Under the pieces are notes generated by a model. That model was not told the origin of the DNA. It did no database searches and was given only the letters and a program-made list of their open reading frames with translations. Below, piece after piece: positions 2,957 to 33,775 of a stretch of 35,884 nucleotides of DNA. Numbering within the stretch: position 1 is the stretch's first letter; each line of letters begins with the position of its first letter. The stretch comes from a virus (Duplodnaviria > Caudoviricetes). A program made the translations under genes and the position numbers. The DNA is taken from IMG/VR virus record IMGVR_UViG_3300002092_000107, positions 1 through 35,884 of that record, one strand, 5' to 3'.

Positions 2957-4536
2957 TATTCGTCTCCCCTGATGATGTCGAGCATGAGTCCTTGGAGACT
3001 ATGCTTTCCGTCCAGCCGTCGGTAAATTTCTCGCTCGATGTTGGTAGATGCGAGCCGCACAACCAGCATTGATTTCGTTTGGCCGGGTCGATTGATACGA
3101 CCGTTGGCCTGTGTGTAGATTTCGGGCTGGTCTGTTGGGCCGTACCAGATAATTGTCGAAGCCGCTGTAAGAGTGAGGCCGTGAGCCATTGTCCGGGGGT
3201 CGGCGACGATGATCCTCGGATGTTCACTATGTTGGAAGTCTTTGAAGACTTCGGCTCGTTTTCCTGCTGAGACTGTTCCATTGATAAGCTCCACGCTGTA
3301 GTGTTTTGACAATTCCGATCTTACCATACTTACCACACTTGTCAAGGGGGCAAAAATAATTATTTTTTCGCGACATTGTTCAATCGCCTCGTGCAGCACC
3401 TGCATGCGCGGCGCTGCGTCGATCTTGTGGATTTCATGCTGTTCACCATACACTGCGCCACAGGAAATTTGGATCAGCTTCATACGCAGGGCTGCCTCGT
3501 TGACCGCAGTGACCGTACCTTTGTCAATCATGATACGTAGCTCACGTTTTAAGTCGGCATATGCCTTCTTTTGACCCGCTGACAACTCAACATTCAGATC
3601 CTGTACAACGAGCGGCGGGAGATCCGTACACTGGTCACGCTCATAGCGAATGGCCGGCTGTAAAACTTCTGCCGTTGTCTTGGCCGCGCCCTTGCGCACC
3701 AACCATTTGAATGTGGAGATGCGGTACATCGTCCGGTCTTTAAAATTCTTTTGGCTCTCGGCATAATCCTTGCGCACGGCGCGTGCTTGTGACCATGCGT
3801 CAGTTGGCTCGTTTGGTGTGGGCGTGCCGGTTAGCCACCAGACGTAAGGCTTGTCAAGTATAACTTGTCGAAGAACCTTATAGCGTAAAGTTCCACTGTC
3901 TTTGTACACCGAACCCTCGTCCACGATGAAGGCATTGAAATTGGGATTGTCTCTAATGGTCTGAGCAAATTCACCCACGGCAATTGATTTGCCGGTACGG
4001 TCAGTGCCAATCGATAATCCATCGTGGTTAATAATGTAGAAGTCTGCGTCTTCACTAAGAAGCCGTTTTCTCTTGGCTCGATCGCCATAAACAACAACGC
4101 CTTTACGACGCGACAAAAAGTTAGCAAAGATTTCATTGAACCACACCGTTTCTAGGGTTGATAGGGGAGAGAGGATCACGCATTTTTTGACGAAGCCTTT
4201 TTGCATAAGGTAGTCGACAGCCCACAGCATCGACAAAGTTTTCATCGTGCCGATGTCGTTCAATATAAAGCTGCGGGGATGTAGCGTTGCAAAAGCCGCT
4301 GTGTGGATTTGATGCTGCGCCGGCTTCCACGGTGGACGGATTGGCCAGTCGTAATTGTGCAGGATAGGCGATACGGCCTCAAAGCCGAGATAGCGCATGG
4401 TTTGCATGCTGTGGAGATCGCAAGGCACCGCCACCTGATTAGGCGTGACGATACGCGCAGTAGGCACAGCAGCGATGATGCGCTGTGGTACTTCAGTCTC
4501 GTACACACAGGCGTTGTATTTATGGCTGTATAACAT
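2956..4536 (-). CDS. SNF2-family (SF2) helicase
   Basis: NDIGTMKT (motif I), IVDEGS (II), LTGTP (III), HGLTLTAA (V), QANGRINRPGQ (VI). Confidence 0.92.
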   Translation of the reverse strand: MLYSHKYNACVYETEVPQRIIAAVPTARIVTPNQVAVPCDLHSMQTMRYLGFEAVSPILHNYDWPIRPPWKPAQHQIHTAAFATLHPRSFILNDIGTMKTLSMLWAVDYLMQKGFVKKCVILSPLSTLETVWFNEIFANFLSRRKGVVVYGDRAKRKRLLSEDADFYIINHDGLSIGTDRTGKSIAVGEFAQTIRDNPNFNAFIVDEGSVYKDSGTLRYKVLRQVILDKPYVWWLTGTPTPNEPTDAWSQARAVRKDYAESQKNFKDRTMYRISTFKWLVRKGAAKTTAEVLQPAIRYERDQCTDLPPLVVQDLNVELSAGQKKAYADLKRELRIMIDKGTVTAVNEAALRMKLIQISCGAVYGEQHEIHKIDAAPRMQVLHEAIEQCREKIIIFAPLTSVVSMVRSELSKHYSVELINGTVSAGKRAEVFKDFQHSEHPRIIVADPRTMAHGLTLTAASTIIWYGPTDQPEIYTQANGRINRPGQTKSMLVVRLASTNIEREIYRRLDGKHSLQGLMLDIIRGDE

Positions 4537-9031: not shown

Positions 9032-9057
9032 TGTTGCACCTTGCAAAGTTAAAGTTA

Positions 9058-9525: not shown

Positions 9526-9774
9526 TTAGTTGAGATGTTGCATGACAAGTTTTTGGCAATCAGGCGGTAAGTCTTCAAAGTCGATCCGCCGTCCTAAATG
9601 TCGCCCTGGCATAGCGGTGCAATGCTGGCCGAATCCTTGCGGCGAAAACGGATTTTTACTCATGCCAAGCGCGGCGAATGTTTCTCCATTGCGCTCTGGT
9701 TGATCCATAAAAATAACAGTGAAACGGTCAAAAGATTTTCCGCCAGCGTCATATATGCGAATTGATCCACTCAT
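9526..9774 (-). CDS. Small early phage protein
   Basis: IRIYDAGGKSFDRFTV..LGRRIDFEDLPPDCQKLV; AAGGGTG RBS. Confidence 0.75.
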   Translation of the reverse strand: MSGSIRIYDAGGKSFDRFTVIFMDQPERNGETFAALGMSKNPFSPQGFGQHCTAMPGRHLGRRIDFEDLPPDCQKLVMQHLN

Positions 9775-9796
9775 GGTTGCACCCTTTTGTTAAGTT

Positions 9797-9854: not shown

Positions 9855-10369
9855 CAAAGCGCCGCCCCATGGCCGTGAAGGTGTAGCCGTTTGCCTCTGC
9901 AAATTCGGCTAGATGTTCAATGCTGCAAAGATATTCGCATTCACTTTCCAGTATGTCGATATAAGCCTTGCGCAGCGCCTTCAAAAAATCGTTGTCGATC
10001 TCCTCGCGCTTGTCTTCCCAAGTGTTGCGCTCCTCGCTTCCGTCTTCCGCGTCACAGGCGGGGCCGATAACGTCTAACTTGCGCAAATAATCATGCGCGG
10101 CTTTATAGGTTGCGCAGTCTTTGCCATGATTGCCCGTTATCGTTTCGGCCACTTCCGGCGCGGAAGTAATAAATTCGGCGCTTATTGTTTTGGGGTACAG
10201 GTCAAAGGCTGTTATTTTAAGCCCCACGTCTTTCGCGTCCTGATAGGTGTTTATCCCACCATCCGTGGTCTGTGACGGCTTCCTGTAGCCATTCCCGCGC
10301 GGCGGCTTTCGCCGTTTCGGTTGGCAATTCGTGATACTCATAAACTGTTGTGATGATGTCTTTCGGCAT
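9850..10369 (-). pseudogene. Early phage protein split by an apparent 1-nt insertion (or sequencing error)
   Basis: ATG 10369 with RBS gives MPKDIITTVYEYHELP..GWWD; the downstream frame continues TYQDAKDVG..EYLCS..EANGYTFT. Removing one A at 10250-10252 fuses them. Confidence 0.7.
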
Positions 10370-10396
10370 GATTGCACCTTTTCGAGTTGTGGGGGT

Positions 10397-10615
10397 TTAA
10401 TGCTTTGGCTTGTGCGGCGGCGCAAGGGAAGGCAGGGGCACCGTTAAGTCCGGCGCGGCGTCTTTGTATTCAAACGCGCCGGTTGTGGCGTTGTACTGGC
10501 CGCATTGGTGACCTACGGCGGCTTTGTGGCCATCAAGGGTTAGCGCGGTGTAGGTTGCGGCGTTTGTCGCGGCGGTAAAGGCGAGACAAAGGCATATGAA
10601 TTTAAGGCGTGTCAT
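10397..10615 (-). CDS. Small protein with N-terminal signal/membrane segment
   Basis: MTRLKFICLCLAFTAATNA; GAGGTG RBS. Confidence 0.6.
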   Translation of the reverse strand: MTRLKFICLCLAFTAATNAATYTALTLDGHKAAVGHQCGQYNATTGAFEYKDAAPDLTVPLPSLAPPHKPKH

Positions 10616-10665
10616 GATTGCACCTCTTTCACTGCGTAGGTTACTCTTAGGGGTTAAGTTAGCTC

Positions 10666-11061: not shown

Positions 11062-11090
11062 AATATAAACCAAGCCCTTTCACTTTGCAA
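11062..11090 (-). promoter_or_regulatory. Early sigma70-like promoter with A-rich UP element
   Basis: AAAATTACAAAAATAAACC-TTGCAA-17-TATATT. Confidence 0.65.
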
Positions 11091-11118
11091 GGTTTATTTT
11101 TGTAATTTTCTTGCTTTT

Positions 11119-11358
11119 TCACTTTGCATGGTTTTTAGCTATTTCTTCCAATGTTGTTATAACAGGCTCGTCAAGCTCCTCGGCCATGGTGTCTATTTTA
11201 AGCCAATAGTCACTATGCAATCGGCGCTTGCCATTTATCCACGCACTGACCAAGGGCTGACTAACAAGTAGATATTCGGCTAGCTTGGCTTGGCCATAAT
11301 GGGCTGCTAGCCTTATTAGAGCCTGTCTCCTAGTCATTTCAAACCGACTTACGGACAC
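11119..11358 (-). CDS. Cro-like HTH regulator
   Basis: GQAKLAEYLLVSQPLVSAWINGKR; AAAGGAG precedes GTG 11358 (ATG 11337 is an alternative start). Confidence 0.8.
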   Translation of the reverse strand: MSVSRFEMTRRQALIRLAAHYGQAKLAEYLLVSQPLVSAWINGKRRLHSDYWLKIDTMAEELDEPVITTLEEIAKNHAK

Positions 11359-11384
11359 TTTACACACTCCTTTGTCACGGGTAT

Positions 11385-11422
11385 TTATCACAGATTGTAA
11401 TAATTATCACAAATTGTGATAA
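11385..11422. promoter_or_regulatory. Tandem 19-bp palindromic operators, copy 1
   Basis: TTATCACAGATTGTAATAA + TTATCACAAATTGTGATAA directly upstream of the Cro-like gene; overlaps a minus-strand TTATCA-17-TACAAT. Confidence 0.7.
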
Positions 11423-11901
11423 AGTCAAGTGTGATTTTAGGCTATTTTTTGATTTTATCACAAAATGTGCAAGCATGCACTACGCTCAAGTGTTTGATAT
11501 TTAAGGATTAAGTGTGAGGCGTAGTACGTTTATTACAGAAGTCCGAGGGGACATATAGCTTATTAACTTTTTACTGGTTTACTACGCTGATCGTACTATC
11601 ATGCACTTTGAAGGGTGGTGTAGTCCAGCGAAGCCCAGAGAGAGGAAAGATTAACGCTACGTATATCCTATGTGACTTGTGTAATAAATGATACTATCAT
11701 GCAACTTGACTAGCTACTTTAGGCGCTAAACCCCTGAAATTCCACAAACTTTCAAGCTTGCACAGTCACTTTGCAAAAATCGTCGCTGACACACCTACAA
11801 GCCATTGATAACAATGGACAATTCATGCTTGCACGCTGAAAGTGCAATCATATAACAGTCATGTACTACGCCCCCTCATAGTGAGGTATTTTAGAGCGTA
11901 A

Positions 11902-11938
11902 TTATCACAGATTGTAATAATTATCACAATTTGTGATA
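11902..11938. repeat. Tandem palindromic operators, copy 2 (37-bp direct repeat of 11385-11421, 1 mismatch)
   Basis: TTATCACAGATTGTAATAATTATCACAATTTGTGATA. Confidence 0.8.
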
Positions 11939-12279
11939 TTACTATGCAAGCCTGTCAAGATGCTAGGTTGCATAGTGCTGGGGCGTCTAGCGTGTGAAGG
12001 TGTAGCGCCCCATAGTGAAGGGTCTACACCGCCGTGTCATGCACTATGCAATCGTATTAGGTGTTAGGTTGCAAAGTAAACAGTTTCAGCGATAATGTTT
12101 CAAACTCGGGGGACGGAGGGCCTCGGGGTGGGGGTTTTTAAATTTTGGCAGGTTTGCCAAAAAGTGCGGCCAATTTTTTAAAAAATTTTGGCGCTACAAA
12201 CTACACCCCTCACTTTGCACAGTCATAAATTTTGTGCCCCGACCAGACGGAAAGCCAGCCACAACACCCCACCATCGTC

Positions 12280-12308
12280 TTGCGTCTTGCAATTAACCTA
12301 TGTACACT
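12280..12308 (+). promoter_or_regulatory. Putative promoter of the structured RNA
   Basis: TTGCGT-17-TACACT; 7 nt separate the -10 from G12316. Confidence 0.5.
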
Positions 12309-12315
12309 CTCATTT

Positions 12316-12435
12316 GGAACCGGCTCGGCATCTCCTGCCGGGGTGGGGATCCCGGTGGCCGCACCCTGCCGGAGGTGAGACGCTAAAGGCGCGGCCCGCG
12401 CAAAGCTCACTGCCGATCCCAACAGGCCCGGTTCC
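12316..12435 (+). ncRNA. Unassigned ~120-nt structured RNA (three-way junction)
   Basis: Nested pairings GGAACCGG/CCGGUUCC, UCGGCA/UGCCGA, CUCC..GGGUG/CACCC..GGAG, GUGAG..GCGCG/CGCGC..CUCAC; GC-rich island followed by a U-rich tract. Confidence 0.65.
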
Positions 12436-12451
12436 TTGACTTTTTGTGTGC

Positions 12452-12480
12452 TTGCAAAATGTAAAATTACATGGCATAGT
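12452..12480 (+). promoter_or_regulatory. Putative late-operon promoter
   Basis: TTGCAA-17-CATAGT with ATGTAA-AA-TTACAT palindrome in the spacer. Confidence 0.5.
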
Positions 12481-12519
12481 GCCCGGACAATTTAACGCCT
12501 TCCACATTAGGAGATTACT

Positions 12520-13172: not shown

Positions 13173-13190
13173 ACCAACCGGAGGTGCGCC

Positions 13191-13667
13191 ATGGGTGTAG
13201 TCAACACAACGAAGTCGATCTTTGAAAAAGCAATGGGCCATCAGGCTGCGGCTCCTGAAGCCGAAGTGAAAATGCCCGAGCAACCTGCGCCTGACGAGAT
13301 CGGGCCGGATGAGGTCGAGGAAGACGAGCGCGACCGCGAGGGTAATACCGACCCGGGCACGAATGTTCCGGTCGAGGATCCTGAAGCCGCCGAGATCCGC
13401 CGCGCGGCGCTGCAACAGGCCGCTGACGACATCAACGCCGCAGCCTTGGCACAAGCTAAAATCGACGCTGAGCCGCGCACCGTTCCGGCACAAGCCATCA
13501 AAATCCAGTCGTTCAAGTACCTGACGATCGGCGCTAACAAAGGCATGTTCCACATCACCAGCACCGATAGCCTTGGCGCTACGTTTACGGAAACCGTCGA
13601 CGCGCCGCCCAACCTCACAGTGGCCGGCGTGGTCGAGTACCTCGAAGGCATCGCGTCAACCAAATGA
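13191..13667 (+). CDS. Hypothetical acidic protein
   Basis: GGAGGT RBS; ATGA-coupled to the KTSC gene. Confidence 0.7.
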   Translation: MGVVNTTKSIFEKAMGHQAAAPEAEVKMPEQPAPDEIGPDEVEEDERDREGNTDPGTNVPVEDPEAAEIRRAALQQAADDINAAALAQAKIDAEPRTVPAQAIKIQSFKYLTIGANKGMFHITSTDSLGATFTETVDAPPNLTVAGVVEYLEGIASTK

Positions 13668-13882
13668 TCCCGACAACGTGGTCTTCCGTTGACAGCAGCA
13701 ACGTCGACAGCATCAAGTACGACACCAACGGCAATAACTTGCACGTGCGGTTTAAAAACGGATCGGAATATATTTACGAGGGTGTAGAGCCGGAGCTTGT
13801 CGAGGGTTTGTACCACGCGAGTTCAGCCGGCAATTATTTGCGCGAGAACATCATCGGCACCTATACGCATCGCAAGGTGTAA
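13664..13882 (+). CDS. KTSC domain protein
   Basis: VDSSNVDSIKYD..LHVRFKNGSEYIYEGV..ASSAGNYLRENI. Confidence 0.9.
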   Translation: MIPTTWSSVDSSNVDSIKYDTNGNNLHVRFKNGSEYIYEGVEPELVEGLYHASSAGNYLRENIIGTYTHRKV

Positions 13883-13883
13883 C

Positions 13884-15863
13884 ATGGGTCAGCGCGAAGA
13901 ACTCCTCCGCGTATTCAACGAGGATCGCATCTATGCGCATGAGGTTTTGTTCGCGCACCGGCACAAGGATGTGACGCCGGAATTTCACAAGCAGACCCTG
14001 CAAAATTTTTATAGCCCGCACCCACTCGTTGCCGAAGAAGCTTTCCGTGGCGCGGCAAAATCAACACTGCTCGAAGAATATGTGATCCTCACCGCGCTGT
14101 TCCGCGAGTGCGTGTTCCCCATCTTTATTGGCAACGCCTATGGCATGGCGGTTGAACGTTTGACAGCGGTGAAACAAGAACTAACTAACAACGACGGGCT
14201 GATCGAGTTGTTCGGCGATCAGCATGGGCCGATCTGGTCTGAGGGTGAAATTGTCCTTGCCAACGGCATCAAGATCCAAGCGATCGGCGCACGCCAGTCC
14301 ATGCGCGGTGTCAAGCACAACGACCACCGGCCTGATCTCGCGCTCATTGACGATCTTGAAGACGAGGAGATGGTGTCGACCAAAGATGCCATCCTCAAAA
14401 ACAAACGCTGGTTCAACGGCACCATGCGCCCGGCGCTGGATCCCAAAGGCAAGATCCGCATGCTCGGCACGCCGCTGCATCCCGACGCGCTGATCGAGCA
14501 GGTGATGAAAAATCCTGACTGGATGACGCTGCGCTTCCCGATCTGCTACATCGACGACAAGGGTGTCGAGCAGTCGACATGGCCGGCACGCTTCCCGATG
14601 GAGTGGATCGCCAAACTGCGGCAGCAATATATCGAGGATGGTGCGCTGACCGAGTTCGAGCAGGAATACATGTGCCGGAGCGAAAGCGCCGCGCTCAAAC
14701 CTTTCAAGCCTGACATGATCCAAGTCGCGCCAGTGCGCACCACGTATCTTGCTAAAAAAATAATCGTTGACCCCGCAAGAACGGTTGACGAGAGGCGGTC
14801 GGCTCAGACAGGATATGTTGTCGAAAGCTGGATGGGTAACAAGCTCATCATGCACGAAGCTTTCGGGCGGTTCCATCGCCCTGATGAAATCGTCGATACA
14901 ATTTTCAAACTCGACGAGGAGTACAACCCTGTTGAGATCGCGGTCGAAGTCGATGGCTTGGAAGAATTTCTTATGCAGCCTCTGCGCAATGAGATGCTCA
15001 AGCGCGGGCGGGTTCTTCCAATTATTCCAGTGCGTGCGCCAAAAAATAAAGACGCTTTCATTACCGGGCTGCAACCGTTCTATATCGCAAAAGAAGTTAT
15101 CCACGCAAAATCTCTACCCGAGTTGGATGCTCAGCTTTTACAATTCCCGAAAGGGCGCAAAGACATTCTCAATGCTCAGGCATATGCGCTTCGCCTACGT
15201 TCAGGACAACCTGTGTACGAGGATTTTCAAGACGCGCACGTTGCCGAGGCGCTTGACATTGATGCCCGACGCCCTGCGTTTTTGGTCATGTCTGCTCGGC
15301 CTACTACAACGGGAGCGGCACTGGTGCAGCTTATCGACGGCACCGTTAGGATCTACAAAGATTGGATAGAAAATCGCACCCCGTTGGAATGCTTTAAAAA
15401 CATTCTCGACGACGCCACCCTCGTGGCCGCACGCAAGGTCGAGATCATCGTCCCCATGGAACAGTTTGAAAAATACACCGGCCATGGAATCCCGGGTGCC
15501 GCGCGACTGGCTCGGGCCGAAGTTAAGCCCGGGGCAATGGCTGTGACCTGCGAGGGCAACCTAAAAGATTATTTGAGCAAGACGGTACGCGGCGAACAGG
15601 CGCTGCTGATCGACATGGAGGCCCGGTGGGTTATCAACGCGTTCGCCGGCGGGTATGGGCGAAAGCTTAATACTCAAGGGGTTATATCGGACAAAGCCGA
15701 CGACAACCAATATCGCATAGTGATGGAAGCGATTGAGGCGTTCATCGGTTGGTTTGGCAATCTTAACGATAGCCGTGACAATGACCCAAATCGTCGGTAT
15801 GATACCACTAAGGACGGACGCCAGTTCCTGACCACCCTACCAGTAAGGCGACCACATGGCTGA
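13884..15863 (+). CDS. terL: Terminase large subunit with C-terminal extra domain
   Basis: FRGAAKST (Walker A), LALIDDLE (Walker B), LGTP, FEQEYM, IVDPA nuclease motif, FPKGRKDILNA. Start reassigned to ATG 13884. Confidence 0.92.
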   Translation: MGQREELLRVFNEDRIYAHEVLFAHRHKDVTPEFHKQTLQNFYSPHPLVAEEAFRGAAKSTLLEEYVILTALFRECVFPIFIGNAYGMAVERLTAVKQELTNNDGLIELFGDQHGPIWSEGEIVLANGIKIQAIGARQSMRGVKHNDHRPDLALIDDLEDEEMVSTKDAILKNKRWFNGTMRPALDPKGKIRMLGTPLHPDALIEQVMKNPDWMTLRFPICYIDDKGVEQSTWPARFPMEWIAKLRQQYIEDGALTEFEQEYMCRSESAALKPFKPDMIQVAPVRTTYLAKKIIVDPARTVDERRSAQTGYVVESWMGNKLIMHEAFGRFHRPDEIVDTIFKLDEEYNPVEIAVEVDGLEEFLMQPLRNEMLKRGRVLPIIPVRAPKNKDAFITGLQPFYIAKEVIHAKSLPELDAQLLQFPKGRKDILNAQAYALRLRSGQPVYEDFQDAHVAEALDIDARRPAFLVMSARPTTTGAALVQLIDGTVRIYKDWIENRTPLECFKNILDDATLVAARKVEIIVPMEQFEKYTGHGIPGAARLARAEVKPGAMAVTCEGNLKDYLSKTVRGEQALLIDMEARWVINAFAGGYGRKLNTQGVISDKADDNQYRIVMEAIEAFIGWFGNLNDSRDNDPNRRYDTTKDGRQFLTTLPVRRPHG

Positions 15864-18036: not shown

Positions 18037-18423
18037 ATGGTCAACACAGCGGCATACATGCGGGCCTATCGCGCCAAAAACAAAGATAAAGTTCGGCAAT
18101 GGGAAAAGAACCGTCGGGAGCGGGACAAAGGTGATCGCGCTGAAAGACAGCAGGTTCGGCACTATAAAAAATCTTACGGGTTGCCGCCGGCAGAATGCAG
18201 GTTGATGAAGGCACGCGGTTGCGATATTTGCGGCCGGCACAGACAGGTTATGTGCATTGACCACTGCCATGAAACGGGAAAAGTAAGAGGCGTTTTGTGC
18301 AACAAATGCAACACCGCATTAGGTTTCTTGGACGAAGACGTAGTGCTAATGCAAAAAATGATTGCTTACACAATTTCAAAGTGTCAACCCCTTAAAGTAC
18401 TACTTGCCAAAGTGAATGGCTAA
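18037..18423 (+). CDS. Endonuclease VII-like His-Me (homing) endonuclease
   Basis: CDICG..IDHCHETGKVRGVLCNKCNTALG. Confidence 0.88.
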   Translation: MVNTAAYMRAYRAKNKDKVRQWEKNRRERDKGDRAERQQVRHYKKSYGLPPAECRLMKARGCDICGRHRQVMCIDHCHETGKVRGVLCNKCNTALGFLDEDVVLMQKMIAYTISKCQPLKVLLAKVNG

Positions 18424-19325: not shown

Positions 19326-20699
19326 ATGGCTAGCGTCAACGCATACCCTACCTTTTCGGCTGATATAAGCAATTACATTCAGAAGAAAACTCTGCCGCTC
19401 GTTCAGCGTCAGCTTATCGCTTATCAGTTCGGCGATATGCTCCGTCTGCCGAAACAACGCGGCACGATCTACACGGCTTCCCGTTATGATCGTATCAACT
19501 TACCGTTCGCTCCTTTGAGCGAAGGTATCCCTCCGGTCGGCGAAAGCCTCGTACTGGTGCAGGTCAACGCCGTCGCTCAGCAATGGGGCGACACGGTTAC
19601 CGTCACCGACGTGGCCGACTTCACGATCGAGCATCCTTTGTTCAAGAAAGCGATCGAGTTGGTCGCGCTGCAAATGTCTGAAACGCTTGAACGTAACACG
19701 TTCAACAACCTTCTGGCTGGCACGCAGATCAACTATGTCAACACTCGCGGCGCTCGCGCTTCGCTGTTGTCGACGGACGTTCTGAACCCCCACGAAGTCA
19801 ACCGCGCATTCGGCGCTCTGATTACGATCGGCGCTCCGATGTTCAATGGGATCTCTGGTGAAGACCAGAAGATGCCGGCGGATAAACCGCATATGTCCTC
19901 AAAAGACCCTCGGGCCTTTGAGCATTTCGTCGCAATGGTTCATCCATTCGTCGAACAGGATATGCGCGAAAATCCAACGGTCGTCACTGCATGGCAGTAC
20001 TCCGATGTGAACAAACTCTATAACAACGAGCTTGGTTATTGGGGTGGCATGCGTTGGTGCCGGTCGAACATGATCCCGTTCTTTACGGGCGTCACTGCTC
20101 CGACGACTTCGCCTTCCGCATCAAACGGTTCCTACACCGCAAACACCACTGGTGGATTGCTGGCTACGGGCACCTACTACCTGCAAATCACCGGCTCTGT
20201 TACGCAGAACGGTTACGAGCAGCGTGTCGGCATCGTGTCGACTGGTATCTCCGTCACCGGGCCAAACGGCTCGATCTCGGTTACCACACCGAACGTCGCG
20301 GGCTTCACTTGGAACGTCTACCTCAGCACGTCGACATCGCCGGCGAACTTGGGTGTCACTTCCGGTGGCCCGAACTCCGGCCCGCTCGCTGGTCAGGCAG
20401 TTCAGTTGAACGGCAACACCACCTACGTCATTAACAGCGTAGGCTCGGCTCGCGTACCTCCTGCTGCTCCCGCAGCCGGCGTGTCCGTGTTTCCGACCTT
20501 CATCATCGGCAAGAGCGCCTATGGTCAGGTGATGTTGGACGATCCGAAATTCAGCTACCTGTCCGGTGGCGATAAATCGGATCCTCTCAACCAGTTGAGG
20601 GTTGTGGGTTGGAAGGTCATGTACGGCACTATACTTTTGAACCAGAATTTCTTCATGAGGATTGAAAGTTCCTCAGCATTTTCAGCCACTTTCGGCTAA
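19326..20699 (+). CDS. Major capsid protein, N4-gp56-like
   Basis: PLSEGIPP, QQWGDTVTVTD, HPFVEQD, DKSDPLNQLRVVGWK motifs; strongly biased codon use. Confidence 0.9.
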   Translation: MASVNAYPTFSADISNYIQKKTLPLVQRQLIAYQFGDMLRLPKQRGTIYTASRYDRINLPFAPLSEGIPPVGESLVLVQVNAVAQQWGDTVTVTDVADFTIEHPLFKKAIELVALQMSETLERNTFNNLLAGTQINYVNTRGARASLLSTDVLNPHEVNRAFGALITIGAPMFNGISGEDQKMPADKPHMSSKDPRAFEHFVAMVHPFVEQDMRENPTVVTAWQYSDVNKLYNNELGYWGGMRWCRSNMIPFFTGVTAPTTSPSASNGSYTANTTGGLLATGTYYLQITGSVTQNGYEQRVGIVSTGISVTGPNGSISVTTPNVAGFTWNVYLSTSTSPANLGVTSGGPNSGPLAGQAVQLNGNTTYVINSVGSARVPPAAPAAGVSVFPTFIIGKSAYGQVMLDDPKFSYLSGGDKSDPLNQLRVVGWKVMYGTILLNQNFFMRIESSSAFSATFG

Positions 20700-21164
20700 G
20701 TAGCTGATTGCTGACTGAAGAAGTTCTACGGAGTGTTTGAATTGTCCGAGGCCCATGTTGCAGTTGGTGCAAAGCAAGCCTCGGACTTTTTCAGAGGAAT
20801 GACAGTGGTCAACATGAAAAACTTTTCCGCGCCCTTGTGGATCAGTCGTTTTGCAAATCAGGCAGCGCCCGTTTTGTGCGGCGAGCATTTTGTCGTATTG
20901 GCCTTTTGTTATTCCGTAATGTGTTTTCATGTCATAAAAACGGTAGCGGTCCGGGTTCTTTGCATAGCGCTCGCGCTGTTTCTCTGCAATCTTCGCGAGG
21001 TTTTTTCGACGGTATTCATCATGCCTAGCCGACATGCAGGGCTTGCAGTAAGTTTGATAGCCGGTACTGTTGCTCTTTCCTTTACTATACTCAGTCATCG
21101 GTTTAAGTTGTTGGCATCGTGGGCATGTCTTTCCTTGGGAAAGATCAAGTTTTGGATAAGGCAT
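20682..21164 (-). CDS. Endonuclease VII-like homing endonuclease, antisense to the late operon
   Basis: N-terminal CxxC..CxxC; QNGRCLIC..HVDHCHSSEKVRGLLCTNCNMGLG; AAAGGAG RBS. Confidence 0.9.
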   Translation of the reverse strand: MPYPKLDLSQGKTCPRCQQLKPMTEYSKGKSNSTGYQTYCKPCMSARHDEYRRKNLAKIAEKQRERYAKNPDRYRFYDMKTHYGITKGQYDKMLAAQNGRCLICKTTDPQGRGKVFHVDHCHSSEKVRGLLCTNCNMGLGQFKHSVELLQSAISYLAESG

Positions 21165-21990: not shown

Positions 21991-22004
21991 ATAAAGGTGC
22001 AAAG

Positions 22005-27028: not shown

Positions 27029-27259
27029 ATGCCCACTTGGTTAATCACTGCCTTACTTAAATACGTTCTCCCGATCGTAATTCAATGGCTTCAAAAAGAA
27101 GGCTATTTGGATGCGGGTGAGGCTTTGATTTCCAAGGGGGCTGTAGCGATAGTTTCTGAAGTTCGTTCCCTCAAAACTTATGACCAATATCCCGGTGATC
27201 CTCCCGCGCCTACGGGCACGACGAATATGACCACAGGCGGTGGCACGCCGGTGACATAA
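27029..27259 (+). CDS. Small protein with amphipathic N-terminus
   Basis: MPTWLITALLKYVLPIVIQWL; AAGGA RBS. Confidence 0.6.
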   Translation: MPTWLITALLKYVLPIVIQWLQKEGYLDAGEALISKGAVAIVSEVRSLKTYDQYPGDPPAPTGTTNMTTGGGTPVT

Positions 27260-27717
27260 TGATCCAGTATCAGCAGGAACGCTTCGTTGACCTGATGCCG
27301 GAACTTCCCGAGATTTTCTACAAGCACTGGAACGATATAGCCCTCGACAAAGACGTGATCCCACTGGATCCCGCATGGGATGAATACATGCGTTTGGAGG
27401 CTATCGGGGTTTTGAAGATCACCACCGCCCGAGATGCTGGCAGACTGGTTGGCTACGTTTTTTCCCTTGTTCACCCCCACCTTCACTATAAAAAGTCGCT
27501 GACGGCCTATACCGATTTGATGTATCTAAGGAGCGAATATACTAAAGGTTTTGGGATCTTTCGCTATGCAGGGTTGATCCGGCATAGTGAAAAAATGTTG
27601 CGTGACTTAGGTGTGCAAAAGCGCTATCTTATGACAAAGGTTTACCATGATCTAACCCCGCTCTTTGCAAGGTTGGGCTATCGGTTTATCGAAAAGATTT
27701 CTGCTAAGCTGCTTTAG
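27259..27717 (+). CDS. GNAT-fold acyltransferase
   Basis: TARDAGRLVGY..DLMYLRSEYTKG..LFARLGY. Confidence 0.8.
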   Translation: MIQYQQERFVDLMPELPEIFYKHWNDIALDKDVIPLDPAWDEYMRLEAIGVLKITTARDAGRLVGYVFSLVHPHLHYKKSLTAYTDLMYLRSEYTKGFGIFRYAGLIRHSEKMLRDLGVQKRYLMTKVYHDLTPLFARLGYRFIEKISAKLL

Positions 27718-28724: not shown

Positions 28725-30047
28725 ATGGCTGGCTATCAAACCGCATATGACGCTTACCAAACAGGACAAGCTGCGGCCCTAGCGAATTTGTTGCGCGGAT
28801 TACAGGTGCAACAAGAGCAGGCAAATGCAGCCGGTCAAAATTTGGCTGGTAATGCGCTAACGGCCAATTCTACAGATCCGACAAGTCCCGCTTCAGGCAT
28901 GAATGCACCCGGTACCCCGGCTGGTACTGGTGCGCCACCTAATTTGACGCCTGCGCCGAACCCTCCGCCCGTTACACAAGTGCCTATGCCCGGAGCCACA
29001 CCCATGTCTGCTGGCCCCATACCGCCACCCCCTTCGCCCGGCCAGATGCCGGCTGCGCCACAAGGGGCGTCGATCCCGCCAATTTCCGCTTCGCAGCTTC
29101 AGCCGCCCGGCCAAGGCACACCGCCTATAGCGCCAATGCCGTCGCCGGCTGCTCCGCCCGCCGCGCCCGCAGGTCAGGGGCCAGCTTCCGCGCCGCAAGC
29201 CAACCAGATGGGTCAGGGCACACAAAATCCATGGTGGAAAACGATGGCTGCGCAGATCAAACAACAGAACCCTAACGCTAGTGGTCGCGATGTCATGGCC
29301 GCATTGAATGCGATGCAGCCGGTGATGAACGCGACGAACCGTCAACAGCTTTCGGATCTGCATATGCAGCTTGCCATGCAGAAGTTGCAATCGGGTCAGG
29401 CCACGCCCGAAGAAATTGATTTTCTTGCCAACGAGGTTGCCAACGGCAATCAGTCGATCTTGACGCGCATGCCCGCGCCGGTGCGCCTCGCCGTCATGGA
29501 AAAGCTTGAACAGGGCGGCACGTCTGGCTCCGATGCGGCGAACGCCGCCACAACCTATCACGGTAAACAGTCTGAAGCTGCCGCCGCCGGTCGTCGCACT
29601 GGTAACATTGACGTAGCTGTTAGCGGCGGGCAAGAAATTGCGCCTAAAGCTTTGGCTGCTTCCGCCGGCGTGCCGCGCTCAAGCTGGTTGCTGGCAGGAC
29701 AGATGGGAAACTGGCTCAAGACACAATCGAACGATCCCGCGCTCGCCAAATTCCAAGTCTTCAACCTCGGTTTGTCGCGCGAATATGCTCAGGCTTTCGG
29801 CGGTACCGTGGCCGCTCAACAGCACGCCCAAGAGGTGTTGGGTACGGCCAAGGATCAGACAGCTTACCGCGCCGCTGTGGAAGCGTTGCAAGAAGAAATG
29901 GCTGCAGCTCAAAAGGGTGGCGAACGCGCCATTCAGAAGGCGGGTAGCGGCGGCAATTCAAGGCCACAATCCGAACTTGCACCGGATGATGGTGGCGGAA
30001 TTAAATTAAATATTCCCCCTCCACCTGACGGCTTTGTGGTGCAATGA
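28725..30047 (+). CDS. Ejection/internal virion protein 2 (Pro-rich region)
   Basis: Position; Ala/Gln-rich helical segments. Confidence 0.65.
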   Translation: MAGYQTAYDAYQTGQAAALANLLRGLQVQQEQANAAGQNLAGNALTANSTDPTSPASGMNAPGTPAGTGAPPNLTPAPNPPPVTQVPMPGATPMSAGPIPPPPSPGQMPAAPQGASIPPISASQLQPPGQGTPPIAPMPSPAAPPAAPAGQGPASAPQANQMGQGTQNPWWKTMAAQIKQQNPNASGRDVMAALNAMQPVMNATNRQQLSDLHMQLAMQKLQSGQATPEEIDFLANEVANGNQSILTRMPAPVRLAVMEKLEQGGTSGSDAANAATTYHGKQSEAAAAGRRTGNIDVAVSGGQEIAPKALAASAGVPRSSWLLAGQMGNWLKTQSNDPALAKFQVFNLGLSREYAQAFGGTVAAQQHAQEVLGTAKDQTAYRAAVEALQEEMAAAQKGGERAIQKAGSGGNSRPQSELAPDDGGGIKLNIPPPPDGFVVQ

Positions 30048-32196: not shown

Positions 32197-32465
32197 TGGA
32201 CGGCTCGGTTTTAGACATCAAAGGCGCGGCAATTAGGCATCCTAAAACTGGCATCATCTACACCGGCCCTACCCACCCCGAAATTGCTAAAGAATATGGC
32301 TTTCCGGGATCTGGTGATTACTGGCATCATAACCGCAAGAACGCCGGCTTCGTCTTACGTGATGGATCTTTTGTTAATCGCGATCAGGCACTGAATCGGT
32401 ACGGCGTTGACGAGACACACGCCATGGAAGACGCACAAGAAAAATACCGGGAGGCTCACCGATGA
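32196..32465 (+). CDS. Small phage protein (AAIR..YTG..H..GFV..GxFVxR motif)
   Basis: Coupled at both ends (TAATG, ATGA). Confidence 0.7.
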   Translation: MDGSVLDIKGAAIRHPKTGIIYTGPTHPEIAKEYGFPGSGDYWHHNRKNAGFVLRDGSFVNRDQALNRYGVDETHAMEDAQEKYREAHR

Positions 32466-33775
32466 AAATTCTAGTTATTGACAAATACGGGGCATCGCTC
32501 AACTGGACACGCCGCTGCGTCGCCGATGGCCACAAAGTGAAATGGTATGTGCCCACTGATGAAAAAGTGGCGCTGGTGGGAAAGGGCATCGTTGAGCGCG
32601 TGTCAGATCCGCGCGAGTGGTATCGTTGGGCTGACATGATCTTTTTCACTGACAACACTAAATGGTTGCATGAGGCCGATGCATGGCGTGCTGCCGGCTG
32701 GCCGGTAATTGGCCCGGGCGTTGAAGGGGCGAAGTGGGAAATCCTTCGTGATGTCGGCCAGAAAGTGTTCAAAGCCGCTGGCATCAAGGTTGCCGACAGT
32801 AAAAAATTCACGACGTATGATCCTGCCATCGCCTATGTCAAGCGCGAGATGCGCCGCTTCGTCTCGAAGCCCTGCGGCGACGAGGAAAACAAGGCGTTGT
32901 CGTACTGCTCGAAATCACCCGCTGACATGGTTTACATGCTCGAGCGCTGGAAGAAAAACAAGACACTTGCTGGGGAATTTATACTTCAGGAGTTCACCGG
33001 TGGCACCGAGATGGCTGTGGGCGGCTGGTTCGGCCCCGGTGGCTTCAACCGTGGTTGGTGTGAGAATTTCGAATTTAAAAAGCTAATGAACGGGGATCTC
33101 GGAGTTGCCACAGGTGAGCAGGGTACTGTTGTTCGCCATGTTGCCAAATCGCTCTTGGCCGACAAGGTGTTAAAACCTGTCGAGAGTGCGCTGGAAAAAA
33201 TTAACTATGTGGGATATATTGATGTCAACTGCATCATCGACGACCAAGGGGTGCCTATGCCTTTGGAGTTTACGATGCGTCCGGGCTGGCCGTTGTTTAA
33301 CATTGAGCAAGCGGTGCATAAAGGGGATCACGCAGAATGGTTGATGCAACTATACGAGGGCAAGGACGCCCGCAACTTCGAGTTGGACACGGTGATAGTC
33401 GGCGTGGTGATGTCGATACCGGATTACCCGTACAGCCACTTCACGAGGAAGGAAGTGAACGGAGTACCGCTCTATGGAATGACGAAATCAATCGAGCATT
33501 CAGTGCATCCCTGCGAGATGATGATGGGGGAAGCGCCGCTGGAAGTGAACGGCAAGCTCCAAAACTCCCCGATGCTTTGCTCAGCGGGGGATTACGTCCT
33601 AGTGACGACGGGAACGGGGGAGACGATCTCGGAGGCGAAGAAGGGAGCCTATCGGGTCTTGAAAAAATTAAGCATGCCCAACTCCCCGATGTATCGGACG
33701 GATATCGGCGACAGGTTGAAGAAGCAATTGCCGGTAATACAGCAGATGGGCTACGCCGCCAATTTGAAGTTTTAG
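32462..33775 (+). CDS. PurD-like ATP-grasp ligase
   Basis: FILQEF..GTE, NFEFKKLMNGDLGVATGEQGT, LEFTMRPGWP, YRTDIG correspond to phosphoribosylamine-glycine ligase motifs. Confidence 0.85.
   Translation: MKILVIDKYGASLNWTRRCVADGHKVKWYVPTDEKVALVGKGIVERVSDPREWYRWADMIFFTDNTKWLHEADAWRAAGWPVIGPGVEGAKWEILRDVGQKVFKAAGIKVADSKKFTTYDPAIAYVKREMRRFVSKPCGDEENKALSYCSKSPADMVYMLERWKKNKTLAGEFILQEFTGGTEMAVGGWFGPGGFNRGWCENFEFKKLMNGDLGVATGEQGTVVRHVAKSLLADKVLKPVESALEKINYVGYIDVNCIIDDQGVPMPLEFTMRPGWPLFNIEQAVHKGDHAEWLMQLYEGKDARNFELDTVIVGVVMSIPDYPYSHFTRKEVNGVPLYGMTKSIEHSVHPCEMMMGEAPLEVNGKLQNSPMLCSAGDYVLVTTGTGETISEAKKGAYRVLKKLSMPNSPMYRTDIGDRLKKQLPVIQQMGYAANLKF

Follow-up and report, generated by a model that had tools for sequence, protein, structure and literature searches.

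The c4 antisense RNA of phages P1 and P7 (RF01695) is a structured phage RNA with loops that pair around the ribosome-binding site (RBS) of an mRNA of the phage itself and so prevent its translation; the target dealt with in PMC12197685 is an antirepressor mRNA, with a function in immunity. Start-Associated Sequences of cluster K mycobacteriophages, as outlined in PMC3203893, are asymmetric 13-nt sequences standing in one orientation a few nt before the ATG of non-structural genes only; they overlap the Shine-Dalgarno (SD) sequence and carry conserved bases beyond those that pairing with 16S would account for, and what reads them is left there as an open question. The 6C sRNA and other C-rich-loop sRNAs, as presented in PMC6486639, use their C-rich loops as seeds for several mRNAs. 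A likeness of another kind is offered by the phi29 prohead RNA (RF00044; PMC5340915), a junction-based RNA of about 120 nt transcribed from a promoter of its own.

The phage RNA described here can be compared with each of these. It resembles c4 in being structured and in its proposed action near RBSs, here through pairing of 5-6 bp, but no RF01695 match was found (0/4 records at E 10), the RNA is longer, with two junctions and one 5-6-nt seed, and its candidate targets are many and dispersed. The tag that it would read shares asymmetry, orientation, position and SD overlap with the Start-Associated Sequences, but is 5-6 nt long, lies in the late operon at three of its seven sites in the DNA analysed, and has a candidate RNA reader encoded here. 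Compared with the C-rich-loop sRNAs, the RNA is phage-borne, folds differently and had no Rfam match.

Genome setting

The window, that is, the whole stretch of DNA analysed, is the 35,884-nt IMG/VR record IMGVR_UViG_3300002092_000107, an 89%-complete virus record of a podovirus-like phage. PHROGs and Pfam comparisons assigned leftward replication genes, among them polymerase A and an SNF2 helicase, and rightward virion genes, namely the large terminase (TerL, phrog_38; 13884..15863, + strand), an SU10-type portal with its adaptor and the major capsid protein. The RNA element sits in the divergent control region, ahead of the virion-building genes. No cultured phage was close, the best identities being 30% for TerL, 33% for the polymerase and 26% for the capsid protein. 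Relatives were collected by TerL searches (11 and 69 loci).

A preliminary description of this DNA had placed the RNA ahead of a packaging module with a KTSC gene directly before TerL and with no recognisable TerS. Both features were found. The KTSC-domain gene (13664..13882, + strand; PF13619, E 4.7e-18) immediately precedes TerL, and in most relatives of 48-93% identity it lies directly before or near it; the domain is described as DNA-binding in PMC9503650. No TerS family match was obtained among 54 ORFs with PHROGs or 51 ORFs with Pfam, and an acidic 158-aa late ORF considered as TerS had no usable Atlas match.

At 12103..12195 (+ strand) lies a DNA motif composed of AACTYGGG, a G-run and phased A-T tracts. 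It is common to the family, being kept down to about 37% TerL identity, and is not part of the RNA, which lies about 120 bp after it. Contigs L080 and L087 begin inside the G-run, which would fit a site where packaging starts or the genome ends, and the motif is a candidate pac or terminus signal. The control region also holds TGCA(A/T)AGT repeats, nine of whose 11 copies in the window cluster at 11082-12219 (chance mean 2.8), and a duplicated 41-nt palindrome, with copies at 11381-11421 and 11898-11938. Together these appear operator- or iteron-like, and an HTH gene lies at 11119-11391 within the repeat-rich region. At the RNA's position, relative L083 (3075-3150) has some 25 C-rich nt between a promoter and a terminator hairpin, followed by a second promoter; this is possibly a tiny anti-SD sRNA. 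An acetyltransferase-like gene (27259-27717) and a GARS-like ATP-grasp gene (32462-33775; 85-96% conserved) lie within the late virion operon of the window. The portal and scaffold genes are separated by an endonuclease VII gene (18037-18423), and the capsid gene is immediately followed by a 160-aa ORF in antisense orientation (20682-21164; 72% in G002); both are probably mobile endonucleases.

The RNA element and its homologues

The element covers 12316..12435 on the + strand and is 120 nt long (113-118 nt in homologues). It follows a predicted sigma70-type promoter at 12280..12308, in which the -35 hexamer TTGCGT (12280-12285), a 17-nt spacer and the -10 hexamer TACACT (12303-12308) are followed by seven further nt and then G12316. 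The preliminary description had given this promoter and start, and the geometry TTGnnn-17/18-hexamer-7 nt-G recurred in 4/4 homologues; the promoter scored below the threshold of a promoter consensus scan. The U-rich tract described after position 12435 is present at 12436..12445 (+ strand) as a possible 3' end, and is weak in L003. Further downstream on the same strand are a predicted second promoter, which would serve the late operon (TTGC..-17-TGnCATAGT; 12452..12480; conserved in 3/4), and the SD sequence of the first late ORF (12509..12515; start 12520).

Four distinct copies of the element were found among TerL relatives, namely those of the window (= L001), L002/G002, L003-5/G051 and L079/G004, whose TerL proteins are 93%, 77% and 69% identical to that of the window, respectively. 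The element itself is 82% identical to the window in L002, 69% in L003 and 58% in L079, with 49-54% in the upstream and 53-60% in the downstream flanks. All four copies are syntenic and stand behind like promoter geometry, and the phages bearing them form one TerL clade (support 100 in a quick tree of 32 rows). Homologue lengths differ from the window by 5, 2 and 7 nt, and the element is therefore not coding.

In the viral pattern scans that were scored no other copy came up, only the six known contigs. At least 120 loci came from the metagenome scan, in 5 of 64 parts, and none of the 120 listed was real (100 scored by model, best E 0.07; 120 by stem test), while genome scans gave no TerL relative and 0/66 element-pattern matches that passed the covariance model. 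A structural descriptor scan of records up to L138 did not recover copies of the L003 type and contributed nothing beyond G-U-rich noise, and blastn against GenBank phages gave chance matches of 25-37 nt. The covariance models of Rfam 15 (including tRNA, SRP, 6S, Y RNA, ribozymes and riboswitches) did not match, the only hits being off-target at E 2 and 4.2. A tRNA search of the window found none, in agreement with the preliminary description. Likenesses to tRNA, Y RNA, the SRP Alu domain, HDV-like RNA, CRISPR repeats and 16S helix 45 were considered and dropped, as their motifs were absent. No description of this RNA was found in the literature searched, though large motif tables in supplements could hold it. 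On comparative grounds, the element is a real, undescribed structured phage RNA absent from Rfam 15.

Conserved fold

Helices P1-P5 were proposed from the first three sequences, and a covariance model was then built on those three. This model found L079 blind, at the syntenic place, with E 0.0025 in 901,225 bases. Relative to the window, L079 kept 26/26 pairs with 11 two-sided changes, and the minimum free energy (MFE) folds of L079 and of L002 each equal the model fold.

Where the preliminary description had a single three-way junction, comparison of the four sequences gives two junctions. All helices are on the + strand. P1 joins 12316..12323 to 12428-12435 and corresponds to the 8 bp of end pairing described before; the additional 6 bp claimed there form at 6/6, 6/6, 4/6 and 2/6 positions in the four sequences and were not retained. 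P2 (12324..12342) is a hairpin with a pyrimidine-rich loop, L2 (12331-12335), that is anti-SD-like in 4/4 sequences. P3 joins 12346..12351 to 12415-12420. It contains the complementary GGGAU and AUCCC noted earlier, which form a nested helix and not the loop-loop contact then suggested: all six pairs show two-sided change, and GGGAUC/GAUCCC of the window is fully swapped to CAAAGC/GCUUUG in L003. P4 (12352..12372) carries loop L4 (12359-12365), whose CGCACC is the longest invariant unpaired stretch, and P5 (12374..12411) is a variable arm. Junction bases AGG, AA and GC are also invariant.

In a hand alignment 102/104 pair cells hold and 14/26 pairs change on both sides. A model-fitted alignment gave 95% pairing and two-sided change at 15/33 pairs, which 0/500 shuffles reached and from which slid registers dropped to 36-58% pairing; fitted alignments lean toward the model, and a formal covariation test would need more than four sequences. 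With alifold, P1-P4 were obtained (SCI 0.81; 0/300 shuffles as low). There were 11 G-U cells against one A-C, including a U-G to G-U swap, which fixes the + strand. The window sequence by itself folds no better than shuffles (z -0.67), so the evidence for structure is comparative. In the window the conserved fold lies 0.7 kcal/mol above the MFE fold of the preliminary description, which was rejected because it fails in L003 and L079. Two tests set beforehand for the claim of an unassigned RNA with its own promoter, a search of Rfam and covariation among homologues, gave no family match and paired changes in four sequences, both outcomes in favour of that claim.

A tag complementary to the loop

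Seven window genes, four of them leftward early genes and three late, carry a tag, AGGUGC(A/G), 3-6 nt ahead of the start codon, and this tag is complementary to the CGCACC of loop L4. On the - strand, GGUGC is located at 9036..9040 (before a 74-aa early ORF, start 9031), 9779..9783 (82-aa early ORF 9526-9774), 10374..10378 (50-aa ORF 10217-10369) and 10620..10624 (72-aa early ORF 10397-10615). On the + strand, GGUGCG at 13183..13188 precedes the acidic 158-aa late ORF and is retained in both G002 and G051 (31% protein identity), GGUGC at 21996..22000 precedes a 143-aa late ORF, and GGUGC at 30038..30042, before a 715-aa late ORF, was seen in the window only. The 158-aa and 143-aa ORFs are tagged in 3/3 large genomes, with proteins down to 31-33% identity. 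L079, a 5.8-kb fragment with 11 genes, has the RNA, but none of these genes, the acidic ORF included, is tagged. By PHROGs, Pfam, Atlas and PDB comparisons the tagged ORFs were mostly without known function; the computed fold of the 143-aa protein, a beta-hairpin plus a coiled coil, matched nothing in the PDB at E 0.001, and close relatives of this protein occur on further contigs.

When hairpins with CGCACC were scanned for, the same loop turned up in a second clade, carried on a 10-15-bp stem downstream of the capsid gene. Such hairpins follow the capsid stop codon at L082:16441, L088:7755, L089:7181, L092:10821 and L094:12571, and one more, on the - strand of L497 at about 2983-3023, was found after the hypothesis was formed. 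After the hairpin come a short U-rich run and then, ahead of the following SD, AAGGUG(U/C)G, with GGUG(U/C)G 10-14 nt downstream; from these sequences, hairpin and GGUG(U/C)G form a candidate terminator or pseudoknot element. The homologue of the 143-aa ORF is tagged in 4/4 scored hairpin-clade records versus 0/10 other relatives, and L497, the later find, also has the tag before it. The RNA clade and the hairpin clade are each monophyletic, and the tree does not show them to be sisters.

GGTGC-N2-6-ATG was found at 27/306 genes of nine loop-bearing records versus 14/714 in 23 others, and at 0/306 genes in antisense orientation. The 27 tagged genes fall into 16 gene clusters, one doubtful; gene calls were heuristic, and the 27 include one duplicate and one probable internal start. 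When starts were chosen blind to the motif, GGTGC ranked first of 1024 pentamers by gene (21/300 versus 2/306 in near relatives) and second by family (15/190 versus 2/197). The RNA clade alone gave 11/171 versus 2/306 genes. The rank of GGTGC was 1-3 of 1024, whether the RNA clade was taken by itself or with the hairpin clade, and in the hairpin clade alone it was 2 by gene and 6 by family. The two clades may share the loop by descent or exchange, so that enrichment p-values overstate independence; the idea of a loop and tag was formed post hoc, only two clades carry the loop, and the RNA is known from four copies. Another pentamer, GTAAA, was enriched as strongly as the tag in RBS windows of loop-bearing records (16/300 versus 3/710).

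AGGUG is itself an SD core for a standard 16S tail, and the C that follows is not favoured by standard 16S pairing; AGGTG was followed by C in 19/26 cases in loop-bearing records versus 6/19. Of 25 tags, 17 continue with A, 7 with G and 1 with U, so that A outnumbers G, the base with which pairing to the loop would be longer. Pairing is 5-6 bp overall and only 5 bp in 18/25 tags, and the duplex of bare loop and tag is computed at -8.6 to -10.2 kcal/mol. As loop and tag are both invariant, they give no loop-target covariation. The tag resembles the TGCA(A/T)AGT DNA repeats of the control region, and one tag lies in a dyad with such a repeat.

A proposed antisense RNA for tagged ribosome-binding sites

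In our best reading, which we hold tentatively, the element is a stand-alone, C4-like antisense RNA that would occlude tagged RBSs. The RNA would be transcribed from the promoter at 12280-12308, and its 3' end would lie at P1 or be trimmed back to it. The CGCACC of L4 would pair in trans with AGGUGC(A/G) tags of the phage's own mRNAs and hold translation of the tagged genes down; a kiss of 5-6 bp would compete with the 30S subunit because the tag overlaps the AGGUG core of the SD. The rigid scaffold would present L4 and protect the RNA, and L2 may add a general anti-SD contact. This reading builds on what sequence comparison established, namely the fold by covariation, its strand, the invariant loop, the tag and tag enrichment in loop-bearing phages. 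Separate promoters before and after the RNA, the second in 3/4 copies, were counted in favour of a stand-alone transcript.

Alternative explanations

Put-like and riboswitch-like leaders offer one alternative. The element could be a cis-acting leader of the late transcript that forms its structure on read-through RNA and acts by termination at the U-tract, or on translation of the first late ORF through a pseudoknot of L2 with the SD, and we regard this as unlikely. The RNA always lies directly upstream of that ORF. L2 pairs with its SD in 4/4 copies (-7.1 to -10.0 kcal/mol), with a U-A, U-G and C-G series at one position, but any anti-SD loop pairs with any SD. Two folds lie within 0.7 kcal/mol of each other in the window, but the alternative fold is not conserved. 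The weak U-tail of L003 and a UGYG in all four 3' tails that could pair with L4 were counted for a leader; the second conserved promoter between RNA and ORF in 3/4 copies was counted against it, and the genome-wide tag would be left unexplained.

Improbable to a similar degree is that the RNA is a decoy or ligand for a protein of the host (defence, RNase or ribosomal) or of the phage, bound through the invariant loop and junctions, and that the RBS tag has another reader, for instance a protein or a host with an unusual 16S tail. The invariant junction bases in a compact, clade-restricted accessory RNA would suit a bound protein, and the purine after the tag in 24/25 cases fits a U partner better than the C of the loop. 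GTGCA without the leading G, however, was not enriched (2/300 versus 10/710). A host with an unusual 16S tail as the reader is not favoured: no tail with the G variant was seen among 301 Pseudomonadota genomes, of which perhaps only some contain a 16S end and which may not cover the host. Under this explanation the complementarity of loop and tag in two clades would be left to chance.

The preliminary description had likened the RNA to phi29 prohead RNA and raised, as speculation, RNA-assisted packaging or an RNA decoy; a part in the motor we now consider very unlikely. Its size of about 120 nt, its own promoter, its distance of about 120 bp from the pac- or terminus-like motif and the lack of an identified TerS speak for it. 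The phi29 pRNA gene likewise lies near a genome end. The element has two junctions instead of one, and lacks complementary interlocking loops, L2 and L4 having at most 2 complementary bases in 4/4 sequences. RF00044 did not match at E 10 in 4/4 records, which is not decisive because pRNAs share only 12% sequence, the features conserved according to PMC5340915 being secondary structure and interlocking loops. The motor here is of terminase type (TerL phrog_38, SU10-type portal) and accompanies a family A polymerase. Motor and replication genes of phi29 type were not encountered.

The RNA was not found in most relatives. Thirteen other near-complete relatives had no full-length match, although a highly diverged copy elsewhere could escape, and an improved model run on 50 records matched three from the clade and otherwise a single 34-nt fragment (E 0.93). 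KTSC precedes TerL also in L006, L008, L010 and L011, which lack the RNA, and the TerS family PF03592, the one tested across relatives (G000, G002, G005-G050), was absent in 14/14 near-complete records with or without the RNA. The distance from the pac-like motif to the first gene is below 200 nt in 5/14 relatives compared with 343-417 nt in the RNA clade. Since the terminase, the portal, the KTSC-TerL order and the absence of a detected TerS are all shared with relatives that have no copy of the RNA, it looks accessory, which argues against a part in the motor.

That the element acts as a signal in the DNA itself or codes for a small protein, as its place beside the pac-like motif and operator-like repeats and three overlapping frames of 70-83 aa might suggest, is scarcely credible given the G-U excess with its U-G to G-U swap, the unequal lengths and the want of a family match for any of the frames.

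Implications

More speculative than the antisense reading itself, and at present doubtful, is the idea that CGCACC/AGGUGC is a portable, RNA-addressed translation switch, in which one reader loop would be borne by two carriers, the two-junction RNA and the hairpin or pseudoknot 3' of the capsid mRNA. Such a switch would control about 7-9% of phage genes, and genes would join or leave the regulon through a five-base tag. If this is true, an RNA reader would be supplied for start-associated sequences. A tempting but unsupported pRNA candidate has meanwhile been removed. If the loop reads the tag, a phage without an RNA polymerase of its own could use a five-base address at the RBS to regulate genes dispersed over its genome, and the question of who reads start-associated sequences, as put in PMC3203893, would become testable with a 120-nt RNA.
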